This document shows, piece by piece, positions 1 through 13,053 of a stretch of 64,000 nucleotides of DNA. Every line of letters begins with the position of its first letter. The stretch's first letter is position 1. A program made the position numbers and the translations under genes. The notes beneath the pieces were generated by a model. The model was not told the origin of the DNA. It saw only the letters and a program-made list of their open reading frames with translations, and did no database searches. This DNA comes from Patescibacteria group bacterium (GTDB lineage Bacteria > Patescibacteriota > UBA1384 > UBA12157 > JAENIV01), in the NCBI GenBank assembly GCA_041666185.1, contig JBAYHL010000001.1, positions 69,073 to 133,072 on the forward strand, written 5' to 3'.

Positions 1-906
1 GACAGAACCATTTTTACCGTTTATCATATTTTAAACGACCAGAATGTTCGAAGGCAGGCTATAAGGAATCTGAAAAACGAAGATTTGATTAATTTTTGGA
101 AAAACGAATTCGGCAAAGCCGGCGACTACCAGCATGTCAAAATGATTGGCGGTATAACAGCCAAAGTCGGACGATTTCTTTTCTCCGCTACCGCCAGACG
201 GATATTGGAACAGCCTAAATCAACTATTAGTTTTGACGATATATTGGATAATCAGAAAATTATCATTTGCAATCTGGCGGAAGGCAAGCTCGGCGAAGAC
301 ACCTCTCAGTTATTGGGGGCAACGGTTCTTGCTAAAATCCAACAAGCTGCCGTAAGAAGAGCGAGAGTTGAAAGCGCCAGCCGGAAACCTTTTTACTTAT
401 TCGTTGATGAATTCCAAAACTTTGCCGACAAATCATTTACCAAGTTCTTATCCGGCGGACGAAAGTTCGGATTGAGAATTACCATCGCGGAGCAATCAAC
501 TGCTCAGCAAGATAATAGAAATATTACTAATGTCGTTTTGGCTAATACCGGAACAGTAATTTGCTTTAGAACCGCTAGCCCCGTAGATGAAGAATTGATG
601 CTCTCGCAATTTGCCCCGCAAGTAGTCCAAGGCGATATAGGCAACCTACCCCGCTACCGCTTCTATATGAAAATGGCGGCAGTCGAACCGCAGGAACCAA
701 TGTCCGGCGAAACGATACCGATCACAACGCCAAAGGATCCGGCAAAGGTGAAAAGATTAATTGAAGCGTCGAGAAAAAATTATGCCATCGAATACGTCAA
801 ACCGACGAAAAAAGAAATGCCGGCTGAACAACCAAAACCCTCGACTAAAGCTAGCCCTAAGAAAACGAGCGAATCCGCTCCCGCCGGCCTGAATTCTTAT
901 AAGTAA
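1..906 (+). CDS. Type IV secretion coupling protein (TraD/VirD4-like), C-terminal fragment; 5' end truncated by window edge
   Basis: The frame is open from nt 1 with no upstream stop, so the gene runs off the window. It carries a Walker-B-like YLFVDEFQNF stretch and a basic Lys/Pro-rich C-terminal tail typical of coupling-protein C-termini. The stop is at 904-906. Confidence 0.5.
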   Translation, partial: DRTIFTVYHILNDQNVRRQAIRNLKNEDLINFWKNEFGKAGDYQHVKMIGGITAKVGRFLFSATARRILEQPKSTISFDDILDNQKIIICNLAEGKLGEDTSQLLGATVLAKIQQAAVRRARVESASRKPFYLFVDEFQNFADKSFTKFLSGGRKFGLRITIAEQSTAQQDNRNITNVVLANTGTVICFRTASPVDEELMLSQFAPQVVQGDIGNLPRYRFYMKMAAVEPQEPMSGETIPITTPKDPAKVKRLIEASRKNYAIEYVKPTKKEMPAEQPKPSTKASPKKTSESAPAGLNSYK

Positions 907-936
907 ATTCTGTGTACACCTATGTACACAGAATTT
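905..936. promoter_or_regulatory. Perfect 14-bp inverted repeat (AAATTCTGTGTACA-CCTA-TGTACACAGAATTT) just after the coupling-protein stop; candidate oriT/operator or terminator stem
   Basis: Read directly. The left arm at 905-918 is the exact reverse complement of the right arm at 923-936, with a 4-nt loop. No U-tract follows. Confidence 0.5.
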
Positions 937-1019
937 GACCGAATTTAAGATTAAAAAGATAAAAAATCACTACCCATATATTTTATATATATACTACACG
1001 CACTAATTGCTTTAAACTT

Positions 1020-1808
1020 ATGAAAATATTATCACCACAATTGAATCTATCCAAACGACAAACCGACATTCTTATTCTTCTCTATCGCTTTCGCTTCCTA
1101 AATCGTCAACACATACAAAACTCACTCAACCACAAATACCGCAGCCGCATCTTATCCTGGCTTAACGAACTAACTAACCAAAACTACGTCAAACAATACT
1201 ACGACAAAACAATCGCATCGTCTCCGTCTGTCTATTCGCTTGATTCAAAGGGGAGAAAATATTTAAAGAATTTAAAGGAGGGAAATATTAAGCAGGTGCT
1301 ATTAGATCGGGTATGGCGCGAGGCAAAATACTCTTCAAAGTTCAGAGAACATTGTTTATCTTTAGCAGATATTTATATTTCCTTGCTTGGCATAACAGAT
1401 AAAAACAAATCCACCCTTCATTTTTATACCAAGACAGATTTGCATGGAACGGAACATTTCATTGCTCCGGCTCCTGACGCTCATTTCGCTATTGAGGAAG
1501 TGAATGGACAAGTCGTCCGTTACTTTCTGGATATCTTAGACGATATTCCGCCAGCAGCTCATCGCAGGCGGGTAGCGCAGTATTTTAAGTATTTTGCCTC
1601 CGGCGAATGGCAGGACAACACAGACAAGCCGTTTCCTGAAATTATTCTTATCTGCCCAAACACAAGGACAAAAGGTCATTTATTCTATTACATCCGTAAG
1701 AAACTCTCGGGAGAGCCTGATATTTGTTTTTATCTCACAGCCAAAGAACTCGTCGACAGGAAGGGTTTGAATGGAGAAACATTGCAGAAGGTTGCTGAGG
1801 AAGCGTAA
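1020..1808 (+). CDS. Replication-relaxation family protein (plasmid/ICE-associated)
   Basis: The N-terminal pattern SKRQTDILILLYRFRFLNRQHIQ matches the Replic_Relax family N-terminus. It lies next to the coupling-protein gene. Confidence 0.55.
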   Translation: MKILSPQLNLSKRQTDILILLYRFRFLNRQHIQNSLNHKYRSRILSWLNELTNQNYVKQYYDKTIASSPSVYSLDSKGRKYLKNLKEGNIKQVLLDRVWREAKYSSKFREHCLSLADIYISLLGITDKNKSTLHFYTKTDLHGTEHFIAPAPDAHFAIEEVNGQVVRYFLDILDDIPPAAHRRRVAQYFKYFASGEWQDNTDKPFPEIILICPNTRTKGHLFYYIRKKLSGEPDICFYLTAKELVDRKGLNGETLQKVAEEA

Positions 1809-1810
1809 TA

Positions 1811-2188
1811 TTATTTTTTTCTGGTGAGACTCTCAACGAGCATTAGGGGAATTGGAGTTAAAAAGAATACAACAAGCCCTTCTAAATATTCTTTATCAAC
1901 TATTATTAGTTCATACATAACTGGCAAAATAAATATCAAATATCCAAAGAAAGTTTTTTTGTAAATTACAAAGAAATGTTTTTTAAATAAGGAGTAGAAG
2001 GATAACGATAATAAAGCCAAAGAAAATAATACATATATAGAATAATAAATATCTCTTGAATACAAATCGCTTGGTTTCATTCCGTATGTAAATTCAATTG
2101 AAATGAGTACTAATGCAACAAGAAGATGAAGTGCGATCAAACACAAATATAGAGACCAAATTATTTTATCTTTAAGACTGAATTTCAT
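1811..2188 (-). CDS. Small integral membrane protein (hypothetical)
   Basis: 125-aa ORF with three or four hydrophobic helices. It is AT-rich. Confidence 0.3.
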   Translation of the reverse strand: MKFSLKDKIIWSLYLCLIALHLLVALVLISIEFTYGMKPSDLYSRDIYYSIYVLFSLALLSLSFYSLFKKHFFVIYKKTFFGYLIFILPVMYELIIVDKEYLEGLVVFFLTPIPLMLVESLTRKK

Positions 2189-2252
2189 GAGGTAATTATA
2201 TCACAATCCACAAAAAAGGCCTGAGAATCTCATGGACTCCCAGGCCTAATTC

Positions 2253-2582
2253 TCAATACTCATCCGCTAGCATCACCGTCATTATTCTTCTGCAACTTCC
2301 AGTTAGCGGATCTTCCCAAGCTTGCAATTCCTGATCGTAGTAGTCGATCTTCCAGAATACCTTGTCGCCGTGCCAATCAAGCCTGCCAAAGTCGTGCTCG
2401 CCCCAAGGATCATTGTTTTCATTGAAAACGTTGAACTCTTTGATTGCTTGAAGCAAACCGGGCAAGTCCTTAACACTCTGAACCCCGCATGTTAGAGTAA
2501 CTCCAAACCCGCTTCTTCTAAATTGATCGTTTAAGATAGCAACCTGCGAACGAGTATCTTCCATTTGTCTAGTAACCATACA
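2253..2582 (-). CDS. Hypothetical protein, conserved-looking (NDPWGEHDFG...DWHGDKVFWKIDYYD), in higher-GC cassette
   Basis: The start is set at the ATG preceded by GGAAGAGGAGG-ttgt (MVTRQMED...). The N-terminal extension in the ORF track lacks an RBS. GC is about 48%, versus about 33% in the flanks. Confidence 0.45.
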   Translation of the reverse strand, partial: CMVTRQMEDTRSQVAILNDQFRRSGFGVTLTCGVQSVKDLPGLLQAIKEFNVFNENNDPWGEHDFGRLDWHGDKVFWKIDYYDQELQAWEDPLTGSCRRIMTVMLADEY

Positions 2583-2718
2583 ACCTCCTCTTCCAATTAA
2601 ATTAAGGACGAGCAGGTCGACCTTCCCGCCCATCTGTAAAGAGGCAAAGAACAAATAGGCTGGCTGGGTCAAGGTGGAGCACCCAACGAGATGAACGACC
2701 TTGAGGCAGACAGTCTAT

Positions 2719-2752
2719 TTGTTCTACAAGATGGGAAGACTGGGCGGGAGGG
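2719..2752 (+). repeat. 33-bp direct repeat copy 1 (TTGTTCTACAAGATGGGAAGACTGGGCGGGAGG)
   Basis: It matches 4945-4977 with one mismatch (C/T). It is also part of an imperfect inverted repeat with 2628-2650. Confidence 0.6.
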
Positions 2753-2825
2753 AAGAAGTTTAGTATTGTTAAATGGTTCAATTTGTAATATAAAAAACTC
2801 AGGAACACAAAGGGGGTATAACAAG

Positions 2826-3209
2826 ATGGCAGAACAAGTTTGTTCTGATAAGTGCACATCAAAGGATAAAGTTCTGGAAATCGTAAGGCAGACAGTCAGC
2901 AAAGGCATTGGGCTAGTTAGGCTCCAGCTTTTAACCCTAGAGGTTTACGAGTTTACCATCGAGGAGGAGAGTAAAGACAAAGAGAATAGAAAGGGTGAAG
3001 CCGGCTACAATATCTTTCTGACTCTTGCCGAAAAAATAATTGATCGGGGCGGTTTTCATTCACCTCGAAGCGTCCAAGTTGTTTACGAATTGGTCATTTT
3101 CGTAAAACATGGTGATATCGAAGATAGCAAGGAACAACTCAAGAGTAGTTTGATCGCACAGCGGGAAATAGCCAAGTCGGATGCGATTACTTGGGGAGGG
3201 AGAGCCTAG
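2826..3209 (+). CDS. Hypothetical protein (128 aa) in higher-GC cassette
   Basis: The ATG at 2826 is preceded by AAAGGGGGTATAACAAG. The ORF-track start at 2691 would read through the direct repeat and has no RBS. Confidence 0.45.
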   Translation: MAEQVCSDKCTSKDKVLEIVRQTVSKGIGLVRLQLLTLEVYEFTIEEESKDKENRKGEAGYNIFLTLAEKIIDRGGFHSPRSVQVVYELVIFVKHGDIEDSKEQLKSSLIAQREIAKSDAITWGGRA

Positions 3210-3254
3210 AGCCTTTCCCTAAACTCATATTCAGATAAAAGGAGGCAGAATCAA

Positions 3255-3989
3255 TTGAAAAAAAGAGTTGCGGTAGTTACAGGGGCAGGACAAGGCATCG
3301 GAAAAGCGATTGCTTTTGCTCTTGCCAAGGAAGAAGGCATGATTGTCGTAGTCGTTGATTATAACGAGACGATTGCAAAAGAGGCTGCTCTGGAAATACG
3401 AGCATCTGGAGGCAACGCTACTGATCTGCGATGTGATGTCGGCAACCCTATCGAGGTGAGCTCTATTGCAGATATATGGCAGAACCAAGGGATTGATATT
3501 CTGGTTAACTGTGCCGGCATTACAAGAGACAAGCTGTCTGTGCGAATGACAGATAGCGAGTGGAGTGATGTCATTAGAACCAACCTCGATGGTACCTTCT
3601 ACTGTTCCAGGACGGTTGCCAATGTGATGCTTAAGTCCCGGAGGGGCGGGTGCATTGTAAATATTGCCAGTGTGATGGGTATCACGGGTAATGTAGGCCA
3701 GGCGAACTATGCCTCATCCAAAGGCGGAGTGATCGCTTTGACCAAGACAATGGCAAAGGAATATGCCTCACGTAATATTCGAGTCAATGCAGTTGCACCT
3801 GGCTTCATCGCAACAGCGATGACTGAGTCCTTGCCTGAGGTAAAGAGGATTGAAATCGAGAAGGCAATTCCAATGGGCCGGCACGGTAAACCGGAAGAAG
3901 TAGCTGAGGTGGTCAAGTTCCTCTGCTCCGATGCAGCCAGTTACATAACCGGCGAAGTAATCAAGATTGATGGCGGCCTGGCAATCTAG
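3255..3989 (+). CDS. fabG: Short-chain dehydrogenase/reductase, 3-oxoacyl-ACP reductase (FabG)-like
   Basis: It has the TGAGQGIGKA Rossmann motif, NCAG, and an S...YASSK catalytic triad context. It uses a TTG start after an AAAGGAGG RBS, and a rho-independent terminator follows. Confidence 0.85.
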   Translation: MKKRVAVVTGAGQGIGKAIAFALAKEEGMIVVVVDYNETIAKEAALEIRASGGNATDLRCDVGNPIEVSSIADIWQNQGIDILVNCAGITRDKLSVRMTDSEWSDVIRTNLDGTFYCSRTVANVMLKSRRGGCIVNIASVMGITGNVGQANYASSKGGVIALTKTMAKEYASRNIRVNAVAPGFIATAMTESLPEVKRIEIEKAIPMGRHGKPEEVAEVVKFLCSDAASYITGEVIKIDGGLAI

Positions 3990-4016
3990 CAGGCGCGATA
4001 ATAACAAAATCATCTT

Positions 4017-4052
4017 CCCCGCAGGCGCTATTGCTTGCGGGGCTATTTTTTG
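4017..4052 (+). terminator. Rho-independent terminator after fabG-like gene
   Basis: The stem CCCCGCAGGCGC...GCTTGCGGGG is followed by CTATTTTTTGTG. Confidence 0.6.
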
Positions 4053-4181
4053 TGTTCCCACACATTATATTCAATGGGATGACTGGCAGGGGAAGATTTA
4101 AAAACTCGTGGTTAATGCATGTTGACTAATTCAGTGCCTCTGTTAAAATAGCACTGGACAAAAAAAGGGGGTGAATGACTA

Positions 4182-4868
4182 ATGTCCAATATTTCCTATC
4201 ATGTGGGCCACATGGCAAGAAGTGTTCGATTGATGTTTGGCTGCAATCCTGTATTGCCGGAAGGTATGGAGATAGAAACAGGCAGTTTTCCTGAGCCTGC
4301 TGTCTACTTAGATCCATCGGGAGATGGCAGTTGTGTGCCAGGCATGAAGATTAAACTGAAGTGGTCAATCTCTCTGGGAGAATCTACCCAGGTGGATCTT
4401 CTTGACCTGAAAGATGAATGGCTAGTCGTACCGGTTGATAGCGTCAAGCTAACTGGTCACTGTGGTTTCACTGTAAAATCAAATGATCTGCCTAGAGGGG
4501 AAACAAGAAAGCTAACGGAAAAGAGGGGCTGGACGAATCGTGCAGATATCTTCCTGAGCGCTATCAGGGTTCTTTCTGAGCACCATACAGCGGTTCCCGG
4601 AGACAGAACGCCGATCACGGAAGATTCTGATCTGGGGAATGACCTCGGGATGGATCAAATTGACTTTATGGCCATAGTCGTTGAACTAGAAGATGTCTTC
4701 GAGATTGAAATTCCCGATGATGCTTTCCCTGTATCACAGGCAGAAGAACTTGTGAAGCTTGAGGAACGTGATGACGGATCGACAAAGCTCGTCGGTCCTG
4801 ATCTGATGGGTCCTGGATTAACAGTCGGACTGATTGTCGATTATATAGAACGGAAGTTGTTCTTGTAA
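4182..4868 (+). CDS. Two-domain protein with a C-terminal acyl-carrier-protein-like domain in which the conserved Ser is replaced by Gln (DLGMDQIDF...)
   Basis: The C-terminal sequence DLGMDQIDFMAIVVELEDVFEIEIPDD aligns to the ACP consensus [27 protein letters not shown], with Gln at the Ser position. An AAGGGGGTGA RBS is present. A terminator lies at 4906-4938. Confidence 0.55.
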   Translation: MSNISYHVGHMARSVRLMFGCNPVLPEGMEIETGSFPEPAVYLDPSGDGSCVPGMKIKLKWSISLGESTQVDLLDLKDEWLVVPVDSVKLTGHCGFTVKSNDLPRGETRKLTEKRGWTNRADIFLSAIRVLSEHHTAVPGDRTPITEDSDLGNDLGMDQIDFMAIVVELEDVFEIEIPDDAFPVSQAEELVKLEERDDGSTKLVGPDLMGPGLTVGLIVDYIERKLFL

Positions 4869-4905
4869 TCGCCGCACACCATCGTTGCAGTTTCCTATAT
4901 TCTCG

Positions 4906-4938
4906 GCCCGTGGGCATTCGCTCGCGGGTTTTCTTTTT
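4906..4938 (+). terminator. Rho-independent terminator (G-U-containing stem plus U-tract)
   Basis: The stem GCCCGTGGGCATTCGCTCGCGGGT is followed by TTTCTTTTTG. Confidence 0.5.
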
Positions 4939-4944
4939 GCAATT

Positions 4945-4977
4945 TTGTTCTATAAGATGGGAAGACTGGGCGGGAGG
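4945..4977 (+). repeat. 33-bp direct repeat copy 2 (TTGTTCTATAAGATGGGAAGACTGGGCGGGAGG)
   Basis: It matches 2719-2752 at 32 of 33 positions. Confidence 0.6.
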
Positions 4978-5041
4978 ACATCACTTGAAAGAACCAAACT
5001 GCCGATTGTTTTTATTGCTAAACTTTTGTATCCTATAAGTA

Positions 5042-7216
5042 ATGAATGAATTCGGGCAATCAATTTTTATCGAGCCAAAGCCACAAGATAGCATGGGATC
5101 TGCAGAAAGCTATCAAGCTTTGGATGCGGAAAATGGCCAGGAGGGAGAACGAGCTTTCACCGCAGAGGAATTAAGAGAAATTGATTCTAAGAGAAAAATT
5201 TTAACTTCACTGGCATATTTTATTGGTAAAGATTTCCAAATGCCGGTGGAACTTAATAAGCCAGGAGGTGGATGGCACTGGGACTTTAAGGAAAATGTTG
5301 TCAGAGTTGATCCAAAAGATCTATTAGATAAGCCTATGGATTATCTCCGTTTTGTTATTTCTCACGAAGGCGGTCATCGCAGAATTTCTCGTACAGAATT
5401 CATACCTTTAGAGACATGGCGACAGCCTGGATTTTCTTTTATGATGAATGCAATCGAGGATCCAAGAGACAATAATTTTGTAGCAGAAAATTACCCCAAA
5501 TTTAGAGAGCAAATGAATTTGGCTTATGAAATGGATCTAGATTGGGAAAATAAGTCGAAAGAAAAAGCCGAGTCTAAACTTGGCTACCAGCCAAGATTTA
5601 TGCAAGCCGGGTTTGAATATATTAAACAATGGTTTCACGAACAAAAAGGCACTGAGGCAGTAATTGATGAATCCTTACCAGATGAAGTTAAAGATGTCGT
5701 CGCTAAAACTTTAGAATCGGCTCGTGCTTCATGGTGGACATATCCGTCTCGTCAGGAAGCCGATGAAGATGAAGAACTTATAAAAAGATATGCAGAATCT
5801 TCCTACAAAATTAGCTTAGAAAATATATGGCCGGAATTCCAAAAATTAATTGAAAAAGACATTGAAGACCAAAAAACTCAGGAATTATTAGATGACATGC
5901 AAAAAGAAAAAGGTGAGGATGGAAGTACTGATTTGCCACAAGAATTGAAAGAACAACTTTCTCCCGAAGAACAACAAGAGCTAAAGGATGCAATAGATAA
6001 GGCAATTGAAGAAACAAAGCAACAAGGAAAGGGAGAAGCCCAAGAGGGAAAACCAAGTGAAGGAGAAGGAGAACCAGGAGAAGAGCCGAGCCAAGGAGGT
6101 AAACCAATCGATCTAGGCTCTTTGTCTCCCGAACTAAAACAAAAAATAAAAGATTTTATTGACTCTCTTCCCAAAGACAAGAAACAGGAATTAAAAGAAA
6201 GAGCTCAAAAATCTATAGCTGAATTCGAAAAAGACCTCGATAAAGAAATCGAAGGAAAAATGTCAGATAACCCCGACAATAGAGAAGAAGGGAAAACAGC
6301 AAAAGCAGAGCCGTCCAAGCCTACGGAGCAGCCACAAGAACCAGAAACTCCAACACAAACGACTTCTCCAGAATTGGAAAAATATCGTGAGATGATTGCC
6401 GAGACTCTTAAAAAAGATGAGAATACTTACGAGGAAAATAGACGAGAGGTACTGTCTATTATCGATAGTCTTGAAAGCGATCTCCGAGAAATATTTGTCA
6501 CTCGACGTATGCATGCTTGGAAGGGCGGATATAAATCTGGAAAACGGATCGATATTAAAAGGAGAATTCAAGAAAAAGCCAAAGAGGTTTCAGCGATGGA
6601 AAGCCGAGCTTGGGAAAAGCGCGAGATGCCAAGCGAAAAGGATTATGCTATTAGTCTCTTGATTGATTTGTCGGGTTCGATGCGTGGAGAAAAGATAAAA
6701 GAGACTTTTAAAGCCACGATTGTTCTTGCAGAAGTCTTAAATAGGCTTTCAATTCAAACGGAAATCTTAGGATTTAATGACCGAGTTTATGAGTACCAAA
6801 AATTTGGAGAGAATATTTCTCGAGAAATTAGAGAGAATATGGGAGGAATGCTCCAGGAGGTTTATGATACTAGCGGTACCGGGAAAGCTCAGTGGAATGA
6901 TGACGGTTGGGCTCTAACACAAGCTTCAGAAAGATTGGCTAAACAAAAAGCTGTTGAGAAGTTCTTGATCGTTATGTCGGATGGAGCACCGGAAGAATCA
7001 TCTATGCATCCTCGATCTGAATACGATTTAAGCAAAGTGACAGAGAAGGTATTGAAAGAAACAGACCAAAAACTTATAGGTTTAGGAATTGGTTATGGTA
7101 CAAAGCATGTTGAACATTATTATCCGAACAGTTTGGCTGATGTTAGCTTAGAAGAAATGGCTGGTAAACTGGCCGATCTGATCCGTGAGGCTATTGCTAA
7201 CTACGATAAATTCTAA
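5042..7216 (+). CDS. vWA-domain protein with N-terminal HExxH metallopeptidase-like domain and a central acidic/Lys-rich low-complexity linker; MoxR-associated
   Basis: An HEGGH (HExxH) motif sits near residue 110. A MIDAS motif DLSGSM and a downstream SDG motif lie in the C-terminal vWA fold. A long E/K/Q-rich linker separates them. A MoxR ATPase gene is two genes downstream. Confidence 0.7.
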   Translation: MNEFGQSIFIEPKPQDSMGSAESYQALDAENGQEGERAFTAEELREIDSKRKILTSLAYFIGKDFQMPVELNKPGGGWHWDFKENVVRVDPKDLLDKPMDYLRFVISHEGGHRRISRTEFIPLETWRQPGFSFMMNAIEDPRDNNFVAENYPKFREQMNLAYEMDLDWENKSKEKAESKLGYQPRFMQAGFEYIKQWFHEQKGTEAVIDESLPDEVKDVVAKTLESARASWWTYPSRQEADEDEELIKRYAESSYKISLENIWPEFQKLIEKDIEDQKTQELLDDMQKEKGEDGSTDLPQELKEQLSPEEQQELKDAIDKAIEETKQQGKGEAQEGKPSEGEGEPGEEPSQGGKPIDLGSLSPELKQKIKDFIDSLPKDKKQELKERAQKSIAEFEKDLDKEIEGKMSDNPDNREEGKTAKAEPSKPTEQPQEPETPTQTTSPELEKYREMIAETLKKDENTYEENRREVLSIIDSLESDLREIFVTRRMHAWKGGYKSGKRIDIKRRIQEKAKEVSAMESRAWEKREMPSEKDYAISLLIDLSGSMRGEKIKETFKATIVLAEVLNRLSIQTEILGFNDRVYEYQKFGENISREIRENMGGMLQEVYDTSGTGKAQWNDDGWALTQASERLAKQKAVEKFLIVMSDGAPEESSMHPRSEYDLSKVTEKVLKETDQKLIGLGIGYGTKHVEHYYPNSLADVSLEEMAGKLADLIREAIANYDKF

Positions 7217-7230
7217 TACAATTTAAACAT

Positions 7231-7641
7231 ATGGAAAGCAAAAAATTTCATCAATTTATCAAAGATTCTCAAGGCCAAAAGGAGCTTTCTTTAGCGTTGG
7301 CAAAATCAGACGAAGAGTTTATTAAGTTTCATGCTTTTCTAACAGAAGGTGGATATATCGGATCGGATGATATTTACACTGTCTTATCGCACCTTGAAAG
7401 ACATAAAAAAGTCTATTTAGTTATCAATAATACAAGCGCAAAGGTCCTTTACGATTTTGCCACGCAATACCCCACCGGACAAGTAAATCTTTTAAATCCC
7501 AAAACCATGGAAAACAAAAGTTTCACTCCTGACTATAAAAATCATTCGCTAATTTTACTTACAACATCAGAATACTTAAAACACATTGTCAAGCATGATT
7601 TAGATTTTATAAATATAGTTGGAATGGTATATAAAAGTTAA
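7231..7641 (+). CDS. Hypothetical protein (136 aa) between vWA and MoxR genes
   Basis: ORF on the same strand with tight spacing, consistent with operon membership. Confidence 0.45.
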   Translation: MESKKFHQFIKDSQGQKELSLALAKSDEEFIKFHAFLTEGGYIGSDDIYTVLSHLERHKKVYLVINNTSAKVLYDFATQYPTGQVNLLNPKTMENKSFTPDYKNHSLILLTTSEYLKHIVKHDLDFINIVGMVYKS

Positions 7642-7650
7642 AGGTAATTT

Positions 7651-9783
7651 ATGCCTAATTCACCAGAATTTAGTTTTGCCAATATAGCTGAAGGAGGATC
7701 GGGAGGAAAAGAGCCGGTTCAACTCCAAGAAGACCCAAAAACAGAGCTGCCCAAAGCTCCGATTTTGGAAGACGAAGATTCTATATCGTATCTTGGAGTT
7801 AAGCTAGAGAAATCCCATGTCTCCAGTGCTTTCGTGCCGGAAAGAGAAAAATACACCGACTATATCAATGATAAATTTTCACTTGAATTGCAACAAAAAA
7901 TTGCGGTCTCGATGCTTCAGGGTGATCCGATACTTATTGAGGGCGGAACAAGTATTGGAAAAACTACCACTGTTAGAAAGATGTGCGCCGAGTTGGGATA
8001 TGAAGTGCATTACGCAAACCTAAACGGCGCGACTGATGTTGAAGATTTGATGGGCAGATATATCCCCAATCCTCACAAGACCAATCCCGAGGATCCTGAA
8101 TATGTTTTTGCTGACGGCAAGGTTACTTCGGGGCTTCGCAAAGAAGAAGGGAAAAAGAAAATCATCATTTTAGATGAGTTCAATGCTTCAGCTCCAAATA
8201 TCTTGATTCGTCTTCATGAAGTAATAGATGCACTAGAGCGGGGCGGCGAAGTTGTTTTATCCGAGGATGCTTCAGAAGTTGTGCATGTTAGTCATGAAGA
8301 TACAAAGATAATTGCTCTTACAAATCCTCCAGGAAAGGGTTATTTTGGCAGAGAACCTCTTGATCCTGCGCAGTTACGAAGATGGGTTTACCAAAAGGAA
8401 GTTACTGAACTACCGGATAGCACATTTGCTTTTTCAACAGAGGCTTTGTTTGGCATTGGCAGTAGAACTGAAGAAATTCCTGATAGTCTTTATTTAGATT
8501 CACCCGATCAAGCTATTTCACGCGAACAACTAGCAGAAATCTCTGGAATGAAAGAGATACTAGACAAGTATCAGGAATTTCACAAAGCAGCAAAGGAACT
8601 CATTAAACAGAGAATGGTTGCTGCAGACCAGCCCCAGCCGTTTACTTTTGACGACAGAATGGAACCACACAGAATTAGTCGGTTTGTTGCACGTTTTTAT
8701 AATGGCGATATCAACGAAACTTTTCAAAGAGGCCTACGATATTATTATGTTAATAAGCTAGAAAATTCAGAGGACAGACAAAAACTTGAGGAATTGATTA
8801 GTCATGTCTCGTGTACCCCTGCCGTAGACTCTAGAAGACGGGCTATCGGCGAACCTGAAACAAAGACTCCGGAAAGCGCACTAAAAACAAGAGCTGAAAA
8901 AGAGATCGAAGATATAATGTCCAGTTCTGAAATACCAGATTCAGTTAAGGCGGCACTTGCCGGAAAAGAGACGCCACTATCCAGCGAGATATTAGAACAA
9001 ATGAAGGAAGCTAAAGAGATTTTTGGGAATGATTTTCTTGGTCCAGAGGAAGTCAAAGCCGCTTTCTTGGATCAAGTGGAGATCTCTGAAGTTCCATCGA
9101 TTCCATTCTCGAAAGAAGAGCTTGAAAAAGCTCGCGAGCTGGAGCAAATGCTTATCTTACGAGTTGATAAAGCCAAGGATGGTTCAGACCTCACTATGGA
9201 AAAAATTCATGGCCTTCTTAATGGCAAAATCAAAGATGAGGCAAAAGTTTTATACAGCGTCGATTGGTATAAAGATGAAGAATTCTATAAAAAAGATAAG
9301 CCGGAAGTTACTTGGGCGCTTGTCTCCAAAGAAGCTGTGCCGGATTCCTCTGATAAAAATTATCTTGAACAAACTGAAACATTAGCCAACTATTTAAGAA
9401 ACGAAGTGTTTAAAACATTGATAATGCCAGCCAAATACGGTGAAGCCCTCAGGGAATTCGAAAAGGAAAAAGCTTCAATTGCCAGGATTGTTGAAAGCGA
9501 CAAAGAATCAGAATGGAAAGAGGCAGCTCGCAAGCTTGAGGCATTGAAGCTTAATCAACTTACTCGGCAATCCCCAACCGAAGCGCTATATGATTTAATA
9601 GTTCGCTATCAGCAGACAGGCGAGAGATTGATGGAAAATATGTATACTTGGACTAAGCGCCGTGATTCCGGTGGCGGCCTGGTCTGTGTTGGCCGCTTCG
9701 AGTCCGTTGGTGTCCGCGTCGGCGGGGGCAGGCCTGGCGATTGGAGTGGCATTCTTGGCGTTTCTTTCTCCCGCAGTCTATGA
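7651..9783 (+). CDS. MoxR/AAA_5-type AAA+ ATPase fused to a C-terminal DGR variable C-type-lectin/FGE-like domain (DGR target 1)
   Basis: It has Walker A GGTSIGKT, Walker B IIILDEFNASAP and a MoxR-like sensor region. The last about 40 codons form VR1 and differ from the template repeat at adenines. Confidence 0.75.
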   Translation: MPNSPEFSFANIAEGGSGGKEPVQLQEDPKTELPKAPILEDEDSISYLGVKLEKSHVSSAFVPEREKYTDYINDKFSLELQQKIAVSMLQGDPILIEGGTSIGKTTTVRKMCAELGYEVHYANLNGATDVEDLMGRYIPNPHKTNPEDPEYVFADGKVTSGLRKEEGKKKIIILDEFNASAPNILIRLHEVIDALERGGEVVLSEDASEVVHVSHEDTKIIALTNPPGKGYFGREPLDPAQLRRWVYQKEVTELPDSTFAFSTEALFGIGSRTEEIPDSLYLDSPDQAISREQLAEISGMKEILDKYQEFHKAAKELIKQRMVAADQPQPFTFDDRMEPHRISRFVARFYNGDINETFQRGLRYYYVNKLENSEDRQKLEELISHVSCTPAVDSRRRAIGEPETKTPESALKTRAEKEIEDIMSSSEIPDSVKAALAGKETPLSSEILEQMKEAKEIFGNDFLGPEEVKAAFLDQVEISEVPSIPFSKEELEKARELEQMLILRVDKAKDGSDLTMEKIHGLLNGKIKDEAKVLYSVDWYKDEEFYKKDKPEVTWALVSKEAVPDSSDKNYLEQTETLANYLRNEVFKTLIMPAKYGEALREFEKEKASIARIVESDKESEWKEAARKLEALKLNQLTRQSPTEALYDLIVRYQQTGERLMENMYTWTKRRDSGGGLVCVGRFESVGVRVGGGRPGDWSGILGVSFSRSL
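9655..9780 (+). repeat. DGR variable repeat VR1
   Basis: About 125 nt align to the template repeat (11428-11552). Roughly 22 substitutions all fall at template adenines, plus a single non-A difference. The 3' end CTTGGCGTTTCTTTCTCCCGCAGTC is IMH-like. Confidence 0.8.
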
Positions 9784-9811
9784 GCCTTTGAACTTTGGTA
9801 TTTGAGACTTT

Positions 9812-9834
9812 GATTCCGCCGAAGGCGGTCGACA
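9812..9834 (+). other. GC hairpin (CCGCCGAAGGCGG) downstream of VR1, typical DGR target-site hairpin / terminator
   Basis: The same hairpin recurs after VR2. Confidence 0.6.
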
Positions 9835-9866
9835 TAAAAAATTTTATACAATTAAAGGCAAAAAAT

Positions 9867-10856
9867 ATGAGTGAATTTGGTCCATCACCACAATCAGAAG
9901 AAGAAAAAGAAGAACAAGGTGTTTCTCTAGCAAAGGAAATAGCTGATCTTAGAAGTGGTGCCCAAACAGATGAAGATTATGAAAATATTTTGCGTAAAAC
10001 CAAAGTGCTAAAAGAACTGTTTGGGATTTCTTCATGGGATACTGCTTCAGATGAAACTAAATTATCAGGCGAAATAGCTGAACAAATTGAAAGAGCTAAA
10101 GAAATATTAGGAAGTGATGTTTTTGGGCCAGATGCAGTAAAAGAAGCCTTTGGCACTGCAATTGAATTAGGCAGTATTCCCTCGATTCCATTTTCAGTAA
10201 ATGAACTTGAAAGAGCAAAAGAACTCGGCCAGATGCTCATTTTGAGAGCCGGCAAATTGTCTGATGGAAGCAAACTAAATATGAAAAAGATCGGTGAAAT
10301 TTTGGGTGGTAAAGTTAAAGATGAGGGTAAGGTTTTTTATAATCCCGATTGGTACAAAGATGAAAAATTTTTTACAGACGATGCTGTTGAAACCGGTTGG
10401 GCATTGGTCTCTAAAGGGTTAGTATCTGATTCTGTCAATAAAAACTATTTTGAACAAACCGGACTCTTAATCGATCAACTTAATCAGTCTTTTAATGGTG
10501 CTGAAAACTTACCAGAAGAGTATGTTGAGGCAGTGAAAGAATATGCTTTTGCTATGGACGAGATCGCGGAATTAATTGATACTGATTGGCAAAAAGCGGC
10601 TGAGAAATTAGAAGGCCTGGAGATTAATCAATTATTACGTCAATCTCCATCCGAAGCGCTATATGACTTAATTCTCTATTTTCAAAACACAGGGAAAAGA
10701 TTGCTTGGCGATAAATATACTTGGACTAAGCGCCGTAATTCCGATGGCCGCCTGGTCTATGTTGGCTACTTCGAGTCCGCTGGTGTCAGCGTCGGCAGGT
10801 ACAGGCCTGGCTATTCGCGTGGCGATCTTGGCGTTTCTTTCTCCCGCAGTCGTTGA
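9867..10856 (+). CDS. DGR target protein 2, C-type-lectin/FGE-like variable protein (paralog of the C-terminal half of the MoxR fusion)
   Basis: It is about 55% identical at the protein level to residues 430-710 of the upstream gene. The C-terminus is VR2. The alternative start at 9795 lies inside the VR1 hairpin, so I rejected it. Confidence 0.7.
   Translation: MSEFGPSPQSEEEKEEQGVSLAKEIADLRSGAQTDEDYENILRKTKVLKELFGISSWDTASDETKLSGEIAEQIERAKEILGSDVFGPDAVKEAFGTAIELGSIPSIPFSVNELERAKELGQMLILRAGKLSDGSKLNMKKIGEILGGKVKDEGKVFYNPDWYKDEKFFTDDAVETGWALVSKGLVSDSVNKNYFEQTGLLIDQLNQSFNGAENLPEEYVEAVKEYAFAMDEIAELIDTDWQKAAEKLEGLEINQLLRQSPSEALYDLILYFQNTGKRLLGDKYTWTKRRNSDGRLVYVGYFESAGVSVGRYRPGYSRGDLGVSFSRSR
10728..10851 (+). 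repeat. DGR variable repeat VR2
   Basis: It aligns to the template repeat and every internal difference falls at a template adenine (about 16 sites). Confidence 0.8.
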
Positions 10857-10888
10857 GTCTTTGAGCCTTGAACTCTGAAACTTTGATT

Positions 10889-10916
10889 CCGCCGAAGGCG
10901 GTCGGTATTTTTTTGT
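10889..10916 (+). terminator. GC hairpin CCGCCGAAGGCGG plus T-tract downstream of VR2
   Basis: Hairpin followed by TATTTTTTTG. Confidence 0.6.
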
Positions 10917-11050
10917 GCTCTTGGATTGCTAAAACTCGGTTGCTATGTTACTATTGATTTCGGGCTTATGAAGTTAAGTTCAAGGATTTAACTCGCCTAT
11001 TAATAGACTGCTTACACTTTTCTGGCCCCTTATTTGTTATTTTCTAAACT

Positions 11051-11335
11051 ATGTATTATGTTTATGTTTTAAAAAGCCAGAAAGACAAGCGCCTTCACAT
11101 CGGTTACACAAATGACTTACGCCGTTGTATGGAAGCGCATCGTGATGGCAAAATTGCTGCTACAAAAGATAGAATGCCGCTTGAGCTAGTTTATTACGAA
11201 GCGTACAAGTCGGTCACTGACGCGAGAAAAAGAGAGAAGGATTTGAAATTATTCGGCAGTTCTTATTCTCGTCTCAAAAGAAAAATTAATAATAGCATCA
11301 AAGACAAGATTAAAACTAGTGAAGATACTAAATAA
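11051..11335 (+). CDS. GIY-YIG nuclease-domain small protein
   Basis: YVYVLKS...GYTNDLRRCMEAHR matches the GIY-YIG signature. Confidence 0.65.
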   Translation: MYYVYVLKSQKDKRLHIGYTNDLRRCMEAHRDGKIAATKDRMPLELVYYEAYKSVTDARKREKDLKLFGSSYSRLKRKINNSIKDKIKTSEDTK

Positions 11336-11427
11336 GGGGCACATACTTATACAAGCGATTGTCTTTCGCCGGTGATTTGGTTTTAGAGCGAATTACAAAG
11401 CTAGTGCATTGATGGAAAAGTGTAAAG

Positions 11428-11552
11428 AAACGCCGTAATTCCGATGGCAACCTGGTCTATGTTGGCAACTTCAAGTCCGATGGTGTCAACGTCAACAGGA
11501 ACAGGCCTGACAATTCGAATGACAATCTTGGCGTTTCTTTCTCCCGAAGTCT
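11428..11552 (+). repeat. DGR template repeat (TR)
   Basis: It is rich in AAC/AAT codons at positions that vary in VR1 and VR2. It is non-coding as placed and carries a 3' IMH-like segment. Confidence 0.8.
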
Positions 11553-11912: not shown

Positions 11913-12599
<687 letters not shown>

Positions 12600-12612: not shown

Positions 12613-13053
12613 TTGTTCTCAAATATATATCTCAATCCGCTCGATCAGTTTATTAAAAGAGACCTTAAAGAAAAATATTACATTCGCTATGCTGATGATT
12701 TTGTGATTTTGAGTTGTGATCGGGATCATTTAGAGAATCTTATCCCAATATTAAGGTCATTTCTTACTGATGATCTTAAGCTAGAATTGCACCCAGATAA
12801 GATTATCTTGCAAAAATGGAGCCAAGGAATCGACTTTCTAGGATATGTAATTTTTCCATACCATACTGTGCTACGAACAAAAACGAAACAAAGAATGATG
12901 AGAAAAATAAGGAATAATTGCTATCTTTTGAAAGAAGGCCGTATGTCTAGAGAGGCTTTTAATCAAGCTCTGCAATCATATATAGGAATTTTGAAACATT
13001 GCCGCTCTCACGTGTTACGCGATAAGATTGAAACCATCGTTAAAGAAGTCTGA
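12613..13053 (+). CDS. DGR reverse transcriptase, C-terminal part (PLGNLTSQ DGR signature, YADD catalytic motif, thumb); frame +1 relative to N-terminal part
   Basis: The frame is open from 12565 (AFGRGTPLGNLTSQLFSNIYL...) and includes YADDF. Confidence 0.7.
   Translation: MFSNIYLNPLDQFIKRDLKEKYYIRYADDFVILSCDRDHLENLIPILRSFLTDDLKLELHPDKIILQKWSQGIDFLGYVIFPYHTVLRTKTKQRMMRKIRNNCYLLKEGRMSREAFNQALQSYIGILKHCRSHVLRDKIETIVKEV

Follow-up and report, generated by a model that had tools for sequence, protein, structure and literature searches.

What is the function of the perfect hairpin that separates a coupling protein gene from a relaxase gene in a stretch of patescibacterial DNA? The stretch comprises 64,000 nucleotides of contig JBAYHL010000001.1 (hereafter the window); it opens inside the gene for a type IV coupling protein (T4CP), passes through an inverted repeat, IR1, and a short non-coding block, and continues with a gene of the Replic_Relax family. 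The Patescibacteria, or candidate phyla radiation (CPR), form an enormous group, most of whose members are uncultured and which has resisted genetic work. Genes for type IV secretion systems (T4SSs) abound in these bacteria; the present view, prompted by an apparent rarity of relaxases, is that most of them do not serve conjugation. A previous reading of the window, made from its letters and nothing else (the sequence-only reading), suggested that the left end belongs to a plasmid or an integrative conjugative element (ICE) and that the hairpin is an operator or part of an origin of transfer (oriT) rather than a terminator.

The answer I favour, with a probability of roughly 60%, is that these features form the DNA-processing (Dtr) module of a chromosomal ICE, in which the relaxase would recognise IR1 and the adjoining block, nick the DNA and pass it to the T4CP and the T4SS. 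By position and by analogy with characterised plasmids, the best reading of IR1 itself is a relaxase binding or nicking site within the oriT, possibly doubling as an operator, a function that I infer from the evidence below. The locus has a full set of conjugation genes, for a T4SS, a T4CP, a MOBC relaxase and a serine recombinase, along with an oriT-like conserved cis-element; many CPR genomes contain this pairing of relaxase and cis-element. As an annotation this is well supported; the module is of a known type and does not represent a new mechanism.

A conserved block accompanies the relaxase gene

IR1 (905-936) reads AAATTCTGTGTACA-CCTA-TGTACACAGAATTT and begins at the second base of the T4CP stop codon. 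As the sequence-only reading had described, its arms (905-918 and 923-936, 14 nt each) are 100% complementary, across a loop of 4 nt; within them lies a core at 911-918/923-930 (TGTGTACA/TGTACACA), and the whole is the candidate recognition or nick region for the relaxase. It is the sole perfect inverted repeat of at least 14 nt with a loop of 3-10 nt in the window, where chance would supply a mean of 0.01 (2 of 200 first-order Markov simulations contain one). Folded as single-stranded DNA, IR1 reaches -13.5 kcal/mol (z = -10). The stem is A+T-rich, with only 4 G-C pairs of 14, and is followed by the tail GACCGAATTT. The 113-nt spacer between the T4CP and relaxase genes yielded no iteron array, a consensus scan found no promoter hexamers in 937-1019, and Rfam returned nothing above its gathering thresholds.

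To place the hairpin in a wider context I compared 80 Patescibacteria genomic loci encoding relatives of the relaxase. A non-coding block of ~90 nt, starting with a hairpin at the position of 905-936, aligns well among them despite protein identities of only 30-60%. An nhmmer profile of the block has a single match in the window (905-991, E 6.7e-11) and one match in each related locus, on the strand of the relaxase gene and always immediately 5' of it, and a search of the 10 kb to each side in the 80 loci revealed no further non-coding element that is conserved. The portion 3' of IR1 (937-1019, forward strand), delineated by alignment, nhmmer and the conservation of single columns in 64 sequences, presumably includes the promoter of the relaxase gene and what remains of the oriT. 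It contains three sub-blocks: 943-955 (TTTAAGATTAAAA, family consensus TTTnAGGCTAAA), in which A953 is 97% conserved; 962-975 (AAAAATCACTACCC, family consensus AAAAATTnCTACC); and the TATATA-centred 977-991 (TATATTTTATATATA), in which T986 and A991 are invariant and A989 is conserved at 97%.

The inverted repeat also shows compensatory changes. Its six inner pairs are 87-100% paired in the 31 sequences of the covariation analysis, and one of these pairs, for example, appears as CG (12 sequences), AU (5), GC (5) or UA (3). A covariation score of 0.476 was obtained, which compares with 0.19 for shuffled alignments, none of 500 reaching the observed value, and with 0.09-0.17 for controls in which the pairing was slid. 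Most arms in the relatives follow the pattern GTGTNA/TNACAC, giving a conserved core of 7-8 bp, whereas in the window's stem the 6 outermost bp are unconserved and element-specific; even the closest relative, L003, has three imperfect pairs. Thus, what the family shares is a feature of 7-8 bp, of which the perfect 14-bp stem is a local, extended version.

Could IR1 simply be an intrinsic terminator, or a 3' stem-loop that stabilises the T4CP mRNA? It starts inside the T4CP stop codon, RNA folding of the region gives a z-score of -4.6, and a minority of relatives (L032, L074, L080) do have a T-tract after the stem. However, there is none in the window, where a terminator scan makes no call at IR1, and most relatives have an A-rich tail instead. 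Conservation of GTGT/ACAC across proteins that are only 35-60% identical is likewise not terminator-like. Moreover, the block stays with the relaxase gene where no T4CP gene lies upstream (L004, L013, L023, L029 and L047), where the upstream gene is divergent (L085), and where insertions have put the T4CP stop 0.9-2.4 kb away (L058, L059, L065, L069, L070 and L076). Since the block is tied to the relaxase gene and not to the T4CP stop, the T-tract is missing and the tails are mostly A-rich, a T4CP terminator is practically ruled out; synteny largely refutes the stabilising stem-loop as well, and I regard both as very improbable. The constant company of block and relaxase gene identifies the block as a cis-site of that gene. 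The suggestion that the hairpin is of the oriT or operator kind therefore gains comparative support, as the repeat covaries and accompanies the relaxase gene from locus to locus.

A second covarying palindrome (CCTTATATAAATATAAGG, CCTTTCTTAGAAAGG and similar) lies ~20-40 nt 5' of the relaxase start in relatives such as L032 (9940-9960), L057, L062 and L041. Its 3' arm overlaps the Shine-Dalgarno-like GGAG of the relaxase gene, and it may exert translational or operator control over that gene. In the window this palindrome is degenerate (977-1000) and an obvious Shine-Dalgarno sequence is also lacking.

A divergent MOBC relaxase

The prototypes of the MOBC relaxases are TraX of pAD1 and MobC of CloDF13. 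The family Replic_Relax (PF13814) corresponds to the MOBC relaxase superfamily (PMC5357655) and was placed in the PD-(D/E)XK fold by Steczkiewicz et al. (PMC3424549); TraX combines an N-terminal winged helix with a restriction-endonuclease-like catalytic domain (PMC12857230, PMC6736028). The open reading frame (ORF) at 1020-1808 on the forward strand, which starts with ATG and encodes 262 aa, matches PF13814 with E 5e-12 and 46.7 bits (cut-off 25.3) over profile positions 2-185 of 191, so the sequence-only reading was right to place a Replic_Relax gene after the coupling protein. For comparison, the TraX homologue of pTEF1, a pAD1-type plasmid, scores 28.5 bits.

An AlphaFold model of the protein is confident (pLDDT 91). 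It predicts an N-terminal winged helix-turn-helix (wHTH) domain of MarR/PadR type at residues ~12-83 and, at ~105-250, a restriction-endonuclease-like domain of the PD-(D/E)XK fold, which is the catalytic fold of MOBC. Among 106 homologues, D153 is conserved in 103, an acidic residue at 171 (D/E) in 105 and Y188 in 103, and R184 is nearly invariant. The first three parallel D152, E170 and Y181 of the pTEF1 TraX homologue, of which Y181 is the essential tyrosine cited for TraX (PMC6736028). By profile and predicted fold, then, the protein is a divergent member of MOBC, and no characterised enzyme is a close relative. The named homologues are all from CPR bacteria (Berkelbacteria, Howlettbacteria, Levybacteria, Shapirobacteria, Woykebacteria, WWE3 and 'Saccharibacteria'), and the family comprises 1,694 clusters at 50% identity (E <= 1e-3).

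The wHTH domain brings up a second alternative, namely that IR1 serves only as a transcriptional operator, through which a dimer of the relaxase's winged helix would autoregulate its own promoter, while the true oriT and nick site would lie elsewhere in the element. MarR/PadR-type domains typically bind palindromes as dimers, and the block invariably lies 5' of the relaxase gene. Many relatives (for example L081, L024 and L057) have full palindromes with no spacer, and the strand asymmetry of folding, measured from G-U pairs, is weak (37 versus 24 loci, p = 0.03), as expected of a double-stranded site, a value that leaves single- and double-stranded recognition undistinguished. The many full palindromes and the lack of a strong strand bias fit recognition of duplex DNA by a dimer, through either the winged helix or the restriction-enzyme-like domain. 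A co-variation between the type of IR1 and the recognition helix is also visible, but is inseparable from shared ancestry and is not counted as evidence here. However, the centre of IR1 lies ~65 nt upstream of the TATATA block, the most conserved of all, which is far for a steric repressor, and the search of 10 kb to either side in the 80 loci gave no second conserved element of this kind. Characterised systems, including the pAD1-type plasmids, have their oriT at this very position, and the two roles are compatible with each other. I therefore consider it rather unlikely that IR1 is an operator and nothing else.

The coupling protein and the upstream DNA

At the left edge of the window, frame 1 is open from position 1 to a TAA stop at 904-906 (1-906, forward strand), encoding 301 residues. 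This fragment matches the Pfam family TraG-D_C with E 5e-5 and 23.6 bits, just over the 22-bit cut-off, and gives a weak match to SXT_TraD of NCBIfam. The rest of the gene can be read from L001, a contig of the European Nucleotide Archive retrieved by an exact-protein look-up of the relaxase ORF. Positions 8982-18748 of L001 equal window 1-9767 except for 13 substitutions, all of them confined to 9664-9752, so that identity is 100% over window 1-9663; L001 is thus readable as the window's own upstream DNA.

The full-length T4CP (L001 7293-9887) has 864 aa, and the window encodes its residues 564-864, including Walker B and the TraG-D_C region. Hydrophobic segments at the N-terminus are followed by the motifs Walker A (GQTGSGKST) and Walker B (LFVDEF), and Pfam matches are found to DUF87/HerA (E 2e-7), TrwB_AAD_bind (1e-5) and TraG-D_C (2.5e-4). 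The best relative of solved structure in a sequence search of the PDB is TrwB of R388 (E 2e-5). These scores are all modest, and on them I classify the protein as a divergent VirD4/TrwB-type T4CP, which bears out the proposal that the window opens inside a TraD/VirD4-like coupling protein. The same proposal named an ordinary chromosomal FtsK/SpoIIIE-like gene, with no transfer genes upstream, as the finding that would speak against it. The domain search gave no FtsK_SpoIIIE match for the 864-aa protein, and transfer genes do lie upstream on L001.

Divergently oriented from the T4CP gene on L001 is a group encoding a TrbC/VirB2 pilin, a 428-aa VirB6/TrbL-like membrane protein, PrgI (VirB3-like), a TraC-like protein, a 594-aa VirB4 ATPase and an M23 peptidoglycan hydrolase acting on the cell wall. 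These genes match the monoderm (MPF_FATA-like) T4SS set reported for Patescibacteria (PMC12102498). Beyond them, L001 encodes an ORF of 86 aa and a large serine recombinase, whose domains are Resolvase, Recombinase and Zn_ribbon_recom. All the genes expected of an ICE (a T4SS comprising VirB4 and partners, a T4CP, a relaxase and a recombinase) are therefore co-located, and with a full T4SS gene set beside the relaxase and T4CP genes the element looks self-transmissible from its gene content.

Is the element a plasmid or is it integrated? The genes at 16-64 kb of the window include RNase Y, TypA/BipA, a DEAD-box helicase, a P-type ATPase and 10 tRNAs, and this housekeeping content marks the DNA as chromosomal. 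G+C content is 0.37-0.48 from the recombinase to ~11.5 kb of the window and 0.31-0.37 past that point. Together with the recombinase, this step indicates an integrated element of at least ~20 kb. In L085, housekeeping genes begin within ~2 kb of the recombinase 3' end, which suggests that the recombinase marks the element's left end. On this reading of the gene content, the element is best regarded as an ICE in the chromosome and not a plasmid; of the two possibilities raised by the sequence-only reading, the ICE is favoured over the plasmid. No empty site was found: a TypA look-up gave only a contig of the same population, and L003 has no shared chromosomal anchor downstream.

The 86-aa ORF (L001 1527-1787) has no Pfam match and, in related loci, always stands beside the large serine recombinase (50-64% identical). 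It is a candidate recombination directionality factor or excisionase.

The module in other Patescibacteria

In 72 of the 80 loci the gene immediately upstream of the relaxase gene encodes a T4CP, and in 63 loci the distance from T4CP stop to relaxase start is 91-190 nt. Furthermore, a serine recombinase is found upstream of the T4CP in 43 of the 80. A VirB4 gene occurs within 10 kb in only 11 loci, and in 6 of the 31 that have at least 9 kb on both sides. This architecture of recombinase (with its 86-aa partner), T4CP and relaxase, mostly without a nearby T4SS, looks, on gene content, like a large integrative mobilisable population around a minority of full ICEs, among them the window's element.

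Gene linkage also bears on a third alternative, in which the Replic_Relax protein is mainly a replication initiator and the hairpin with its AT-rich block is the rolling-circle double-strand origin of an excised element or a plasmid form. The family owes its name to functions in the replication and relaxation of plasmids (PMC3424549), a hairpin with AT-rich DNA behind it resembles an origin, and some ICE relaxases also drive rolling-circle replication (reviewed in PMC5714925). Against this, linkage of the relaxase gene to the T4CP gene and often to a serine recombinase is expected of transfer and not of replication, the window is chromosomal, and the spacer has no iteron array. Given how tight the linkage to T4CP and recombinase is, an origin of replication is the weaker rival, and I judge it improbable.

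Comparison with known systems

One of the closest parallels to the locus is the Dtr module of the Enterococcus faecalis plasmids pAD1 and pTEF1, TraW (T4CP-like)/oriT2/TraX, where the order is the same: a T4CP gene, a non-coding region with an inverted repeat, and a gene for a Replic_Relax protein of ~260 aa. Both relaxases have an N-terminal winged helix and a restriction-endonuclease-like domain, with similarly spaced Asp, acidic and Tyr residues, and the T4CPs of pTEF1 and the window have in common the DUF87, TrwB_AAD_bind and TraG-D_C signatures. In pTEF1 (pAD1-type, typed as MOBC), the T4CP gene is followed by five or six 12-nt direct repeats and a compound inverted repeat of ~140 bp before the Replic_Relax gene is reached, which is the published oriT2/TraX layout (PMC12857230). 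It is this position and this analogy that make IR1 and its flanking blocks the best candidate for an oriT. The features in question are a covarying inverted repeat, conserved flanking blocks and a place beside the relaxase gene. The systems differ in scale and in setting, as pTEF1 has a spacer of ~700 nt where the window has 113 nt with one 14-bp hairpin, and pAD1 is a pheromone plasmid, whereas the window's element is integrated, carries a serine recombinase and resides in a patescibacterial host.

Within the Patescibacteria, a survey has described MPF_FATA-related T4SS genes in CPR genomes and found MOBC to be the commonest relaxase class (58 of 109), with 39 of the 109 relaxase genes adjoining t4cp (PMC12102498). 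The window locus is one of these T4SS/MOBC clusters, and the pairing of T4CP and MOBC relaxase in Patescibacteria is thus already known. What the present comparison contributes is the tracing of the relaxase/T4CP/serine recombinase module and of the conserved upstream block through 80 genomes. The terms oriT and recombinase have 0 occurrences each in the survey; neither the conserved cis-block, of which the covarying inverted repeat is part, nor the recurrent recombinase/T4CP/relaxase architecture features in it, the wider literature not having been searched.

The streptococcal integrative mobilizable elements with Rel_PF13814/MobC (Coluzzi et al., 2017; PMC5357655) are likewise integrated and combine a recombinase with a PF13814 relaxase. 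Like them, many of the CPR relatives consist of recombinase and relaxase, with or without T4CP, and have no T4SS genes within 10 kb. The window's element differs from them in its full adjacent T4SS set and its host phylum, and no close sequence relationship is detectable.

A proposed role for the block in transfer

If the block is an oriT, transfer might proceed as follows. The element would first be excised by the serine recombinase. The relaxase would then bind the block, whether at the palindromic IR1 through a dimer of its wHTH domain or at the downstream conserved blocks, and its PD-(D/E)XK domain would nick one strand in or beside IR1. Next, the T4CP would dock the nucleoprotein complex onto the T4SS, through which the single strand would be exported. 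Binding of the relaxase to the block would probably autoregulate the relaxase gene too. Some relatives consist of no more than recombinase, T4CP and relaxase, or lack even the T4CP; in these, the block would allow mobilisation by a helper T4SS. Extending this to the whole family, I suggest tentatively, and with less confidence than for the window itself, that the ~90-nt IR1 block could function as the oriT in a very large family of MOBC elements spread across the Patescibacteria, of which some would be self-transmissible and most would be recombinase/T4CP/relaxase modules hitch-hiking on resident T4SSs.

Several points weigh against assigning the block to transfer. The block must also contain the relaxase promoter, which makes it likely that an autoregulatory operator role coexists with any other, and conservation alone is no proof of an oriT. 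The anatomy is unlike that of pAD1, whose relaxase TraX binds the direct repeats of oriT2 and nicks inside a much larger inverted repeat (PMC12857230). Similarity to characterised enzymes is marginal: hhalign of the relaxase family against the pTEF1 TraX homologue gives only E 1.2e-3 and a probability of 20%, and tblastn of the relaxase against 72,556 plasmids returned nothing at E <= 1. Furthermore, the third acid of the metal-binding TraX 'DEE' motif (E172 in the pTEF1 homologue) is without a counterpart at the equivalent position in the window's family. The residue two after 171 is hydrophobic (F/L), and acidic residues come closest at 174 and 175, where their share is only ~77%, in a region where the alignment with TraX is unreliable. 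The left and right junctions of the element were not located; a search for homologues of the recombinase, which was meant to reach the left one, gave a best hit of 90%, not the exact protein. Finally, Quinonero-Coronel et al. (2025) argue that most Patescibacteria T4SSs are non-conjugative (PMC12102498).

Should the assignment hold, the region of ~130 bp at 890-1020 would be the first defined oriT for the Patescibacteria, and a second, far more compact example for the poorly understood MOBC relaxases with their restriction-enzyme-like domain. It would help to understand gene flow in this group, including that of diversity-generating retroelements (DGRs) and defence cargo, and would assist the construction of shuttle or mobilisable vectors. 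In a phylum that is almost intractable, such elements and their oriT could themselves serve as genetic tools.

Accessory genes and cargo

Downstream of the relaxase gene are two accessory genes on the reverse strand (1811-2672), one at 1811-2188 for a predicted membrane protein of 125 aa and one at 2253-2672 for a DUF3768 protein. A DUF3768 gene lies just downstream of the relaxase gene in 17 of the 80 related loci and is a conserved accessory gene of this element family. Over window 965-4218, L002 (a contig of the Joint Genome Institute, 3300037810, from the same population) is 99.57% identical, with no mismatches and a single gap, L002 being 14 nt longer.

The forward-strand genes at 2691-11500 are probably cargo of the same island as the relaxase gene, judging by composition, domains and elevated G+C (0.38-0.48). 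They encode a 172-aa ORF, a FabG-like short-chain dehydrogenase (SDR), an acyl carrier protein (ACP)-like protein, a CobT-type von Willebrand factor A (VWA) protein, an AAA_5 ATPase and a 353-aa ORF, the last two of which bear hypervariable C-termini. The FabG-like gene and its neighbour, which encodes a 228-aa protein with a phosphopantetheine-attachment (ACP) motif, occupy 3255-4868 and have the highest G+C of the island (0.46-0.48). An SDR/ACP pair is unusual cargo for a conjugative element.

The hypervariable C-termini correspond to paralogous coding segments at 9545-9831 and 10618-10904, which are 81% identical and end the AAA_5 ORF (7651-9783) and the ORF at 9795-10856. Both have clustered substitutions (9664-9752 and 10788-10825) relative to otherwise identical contigs of another assembly. 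In their sequence the two segments resemble variable regions of a DGR, and the AAA_5/MoxR-like ATPase that ends in one of them is paired with the CobT-type VWA protein.

A DGR reverse transcriptase gene, together with HNH and PLD genes, is found at 11.5-16 kb, past the G+C break at ~11.5 kb; the sequence-only reading had thought that this part, too, might belong to the element. In this reverse transcriptase gene, four nucleotides (GAGA, 12521-12524) are inserted in the window relative to L083, a near-identical contig. The resulting frameshift leads to a TAA at 12597-12599 and splits the gene into two ORFs (11913-12599 and 12613-13053), whereas the reverse transcriptase of L083 is intact at 374 aa; the insertion also completes a perfect 12-nt inverted repeat (12500-12511/12513-12524). 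DGR reverse transcriptases that are 36-55% identical to that of the window occur within 10 kb of the relaxase gene in L012, L020, L060 and L068, accompanied by Avd in L012 and L020. DGRs thus appear to be recurrent cargo of this element family.

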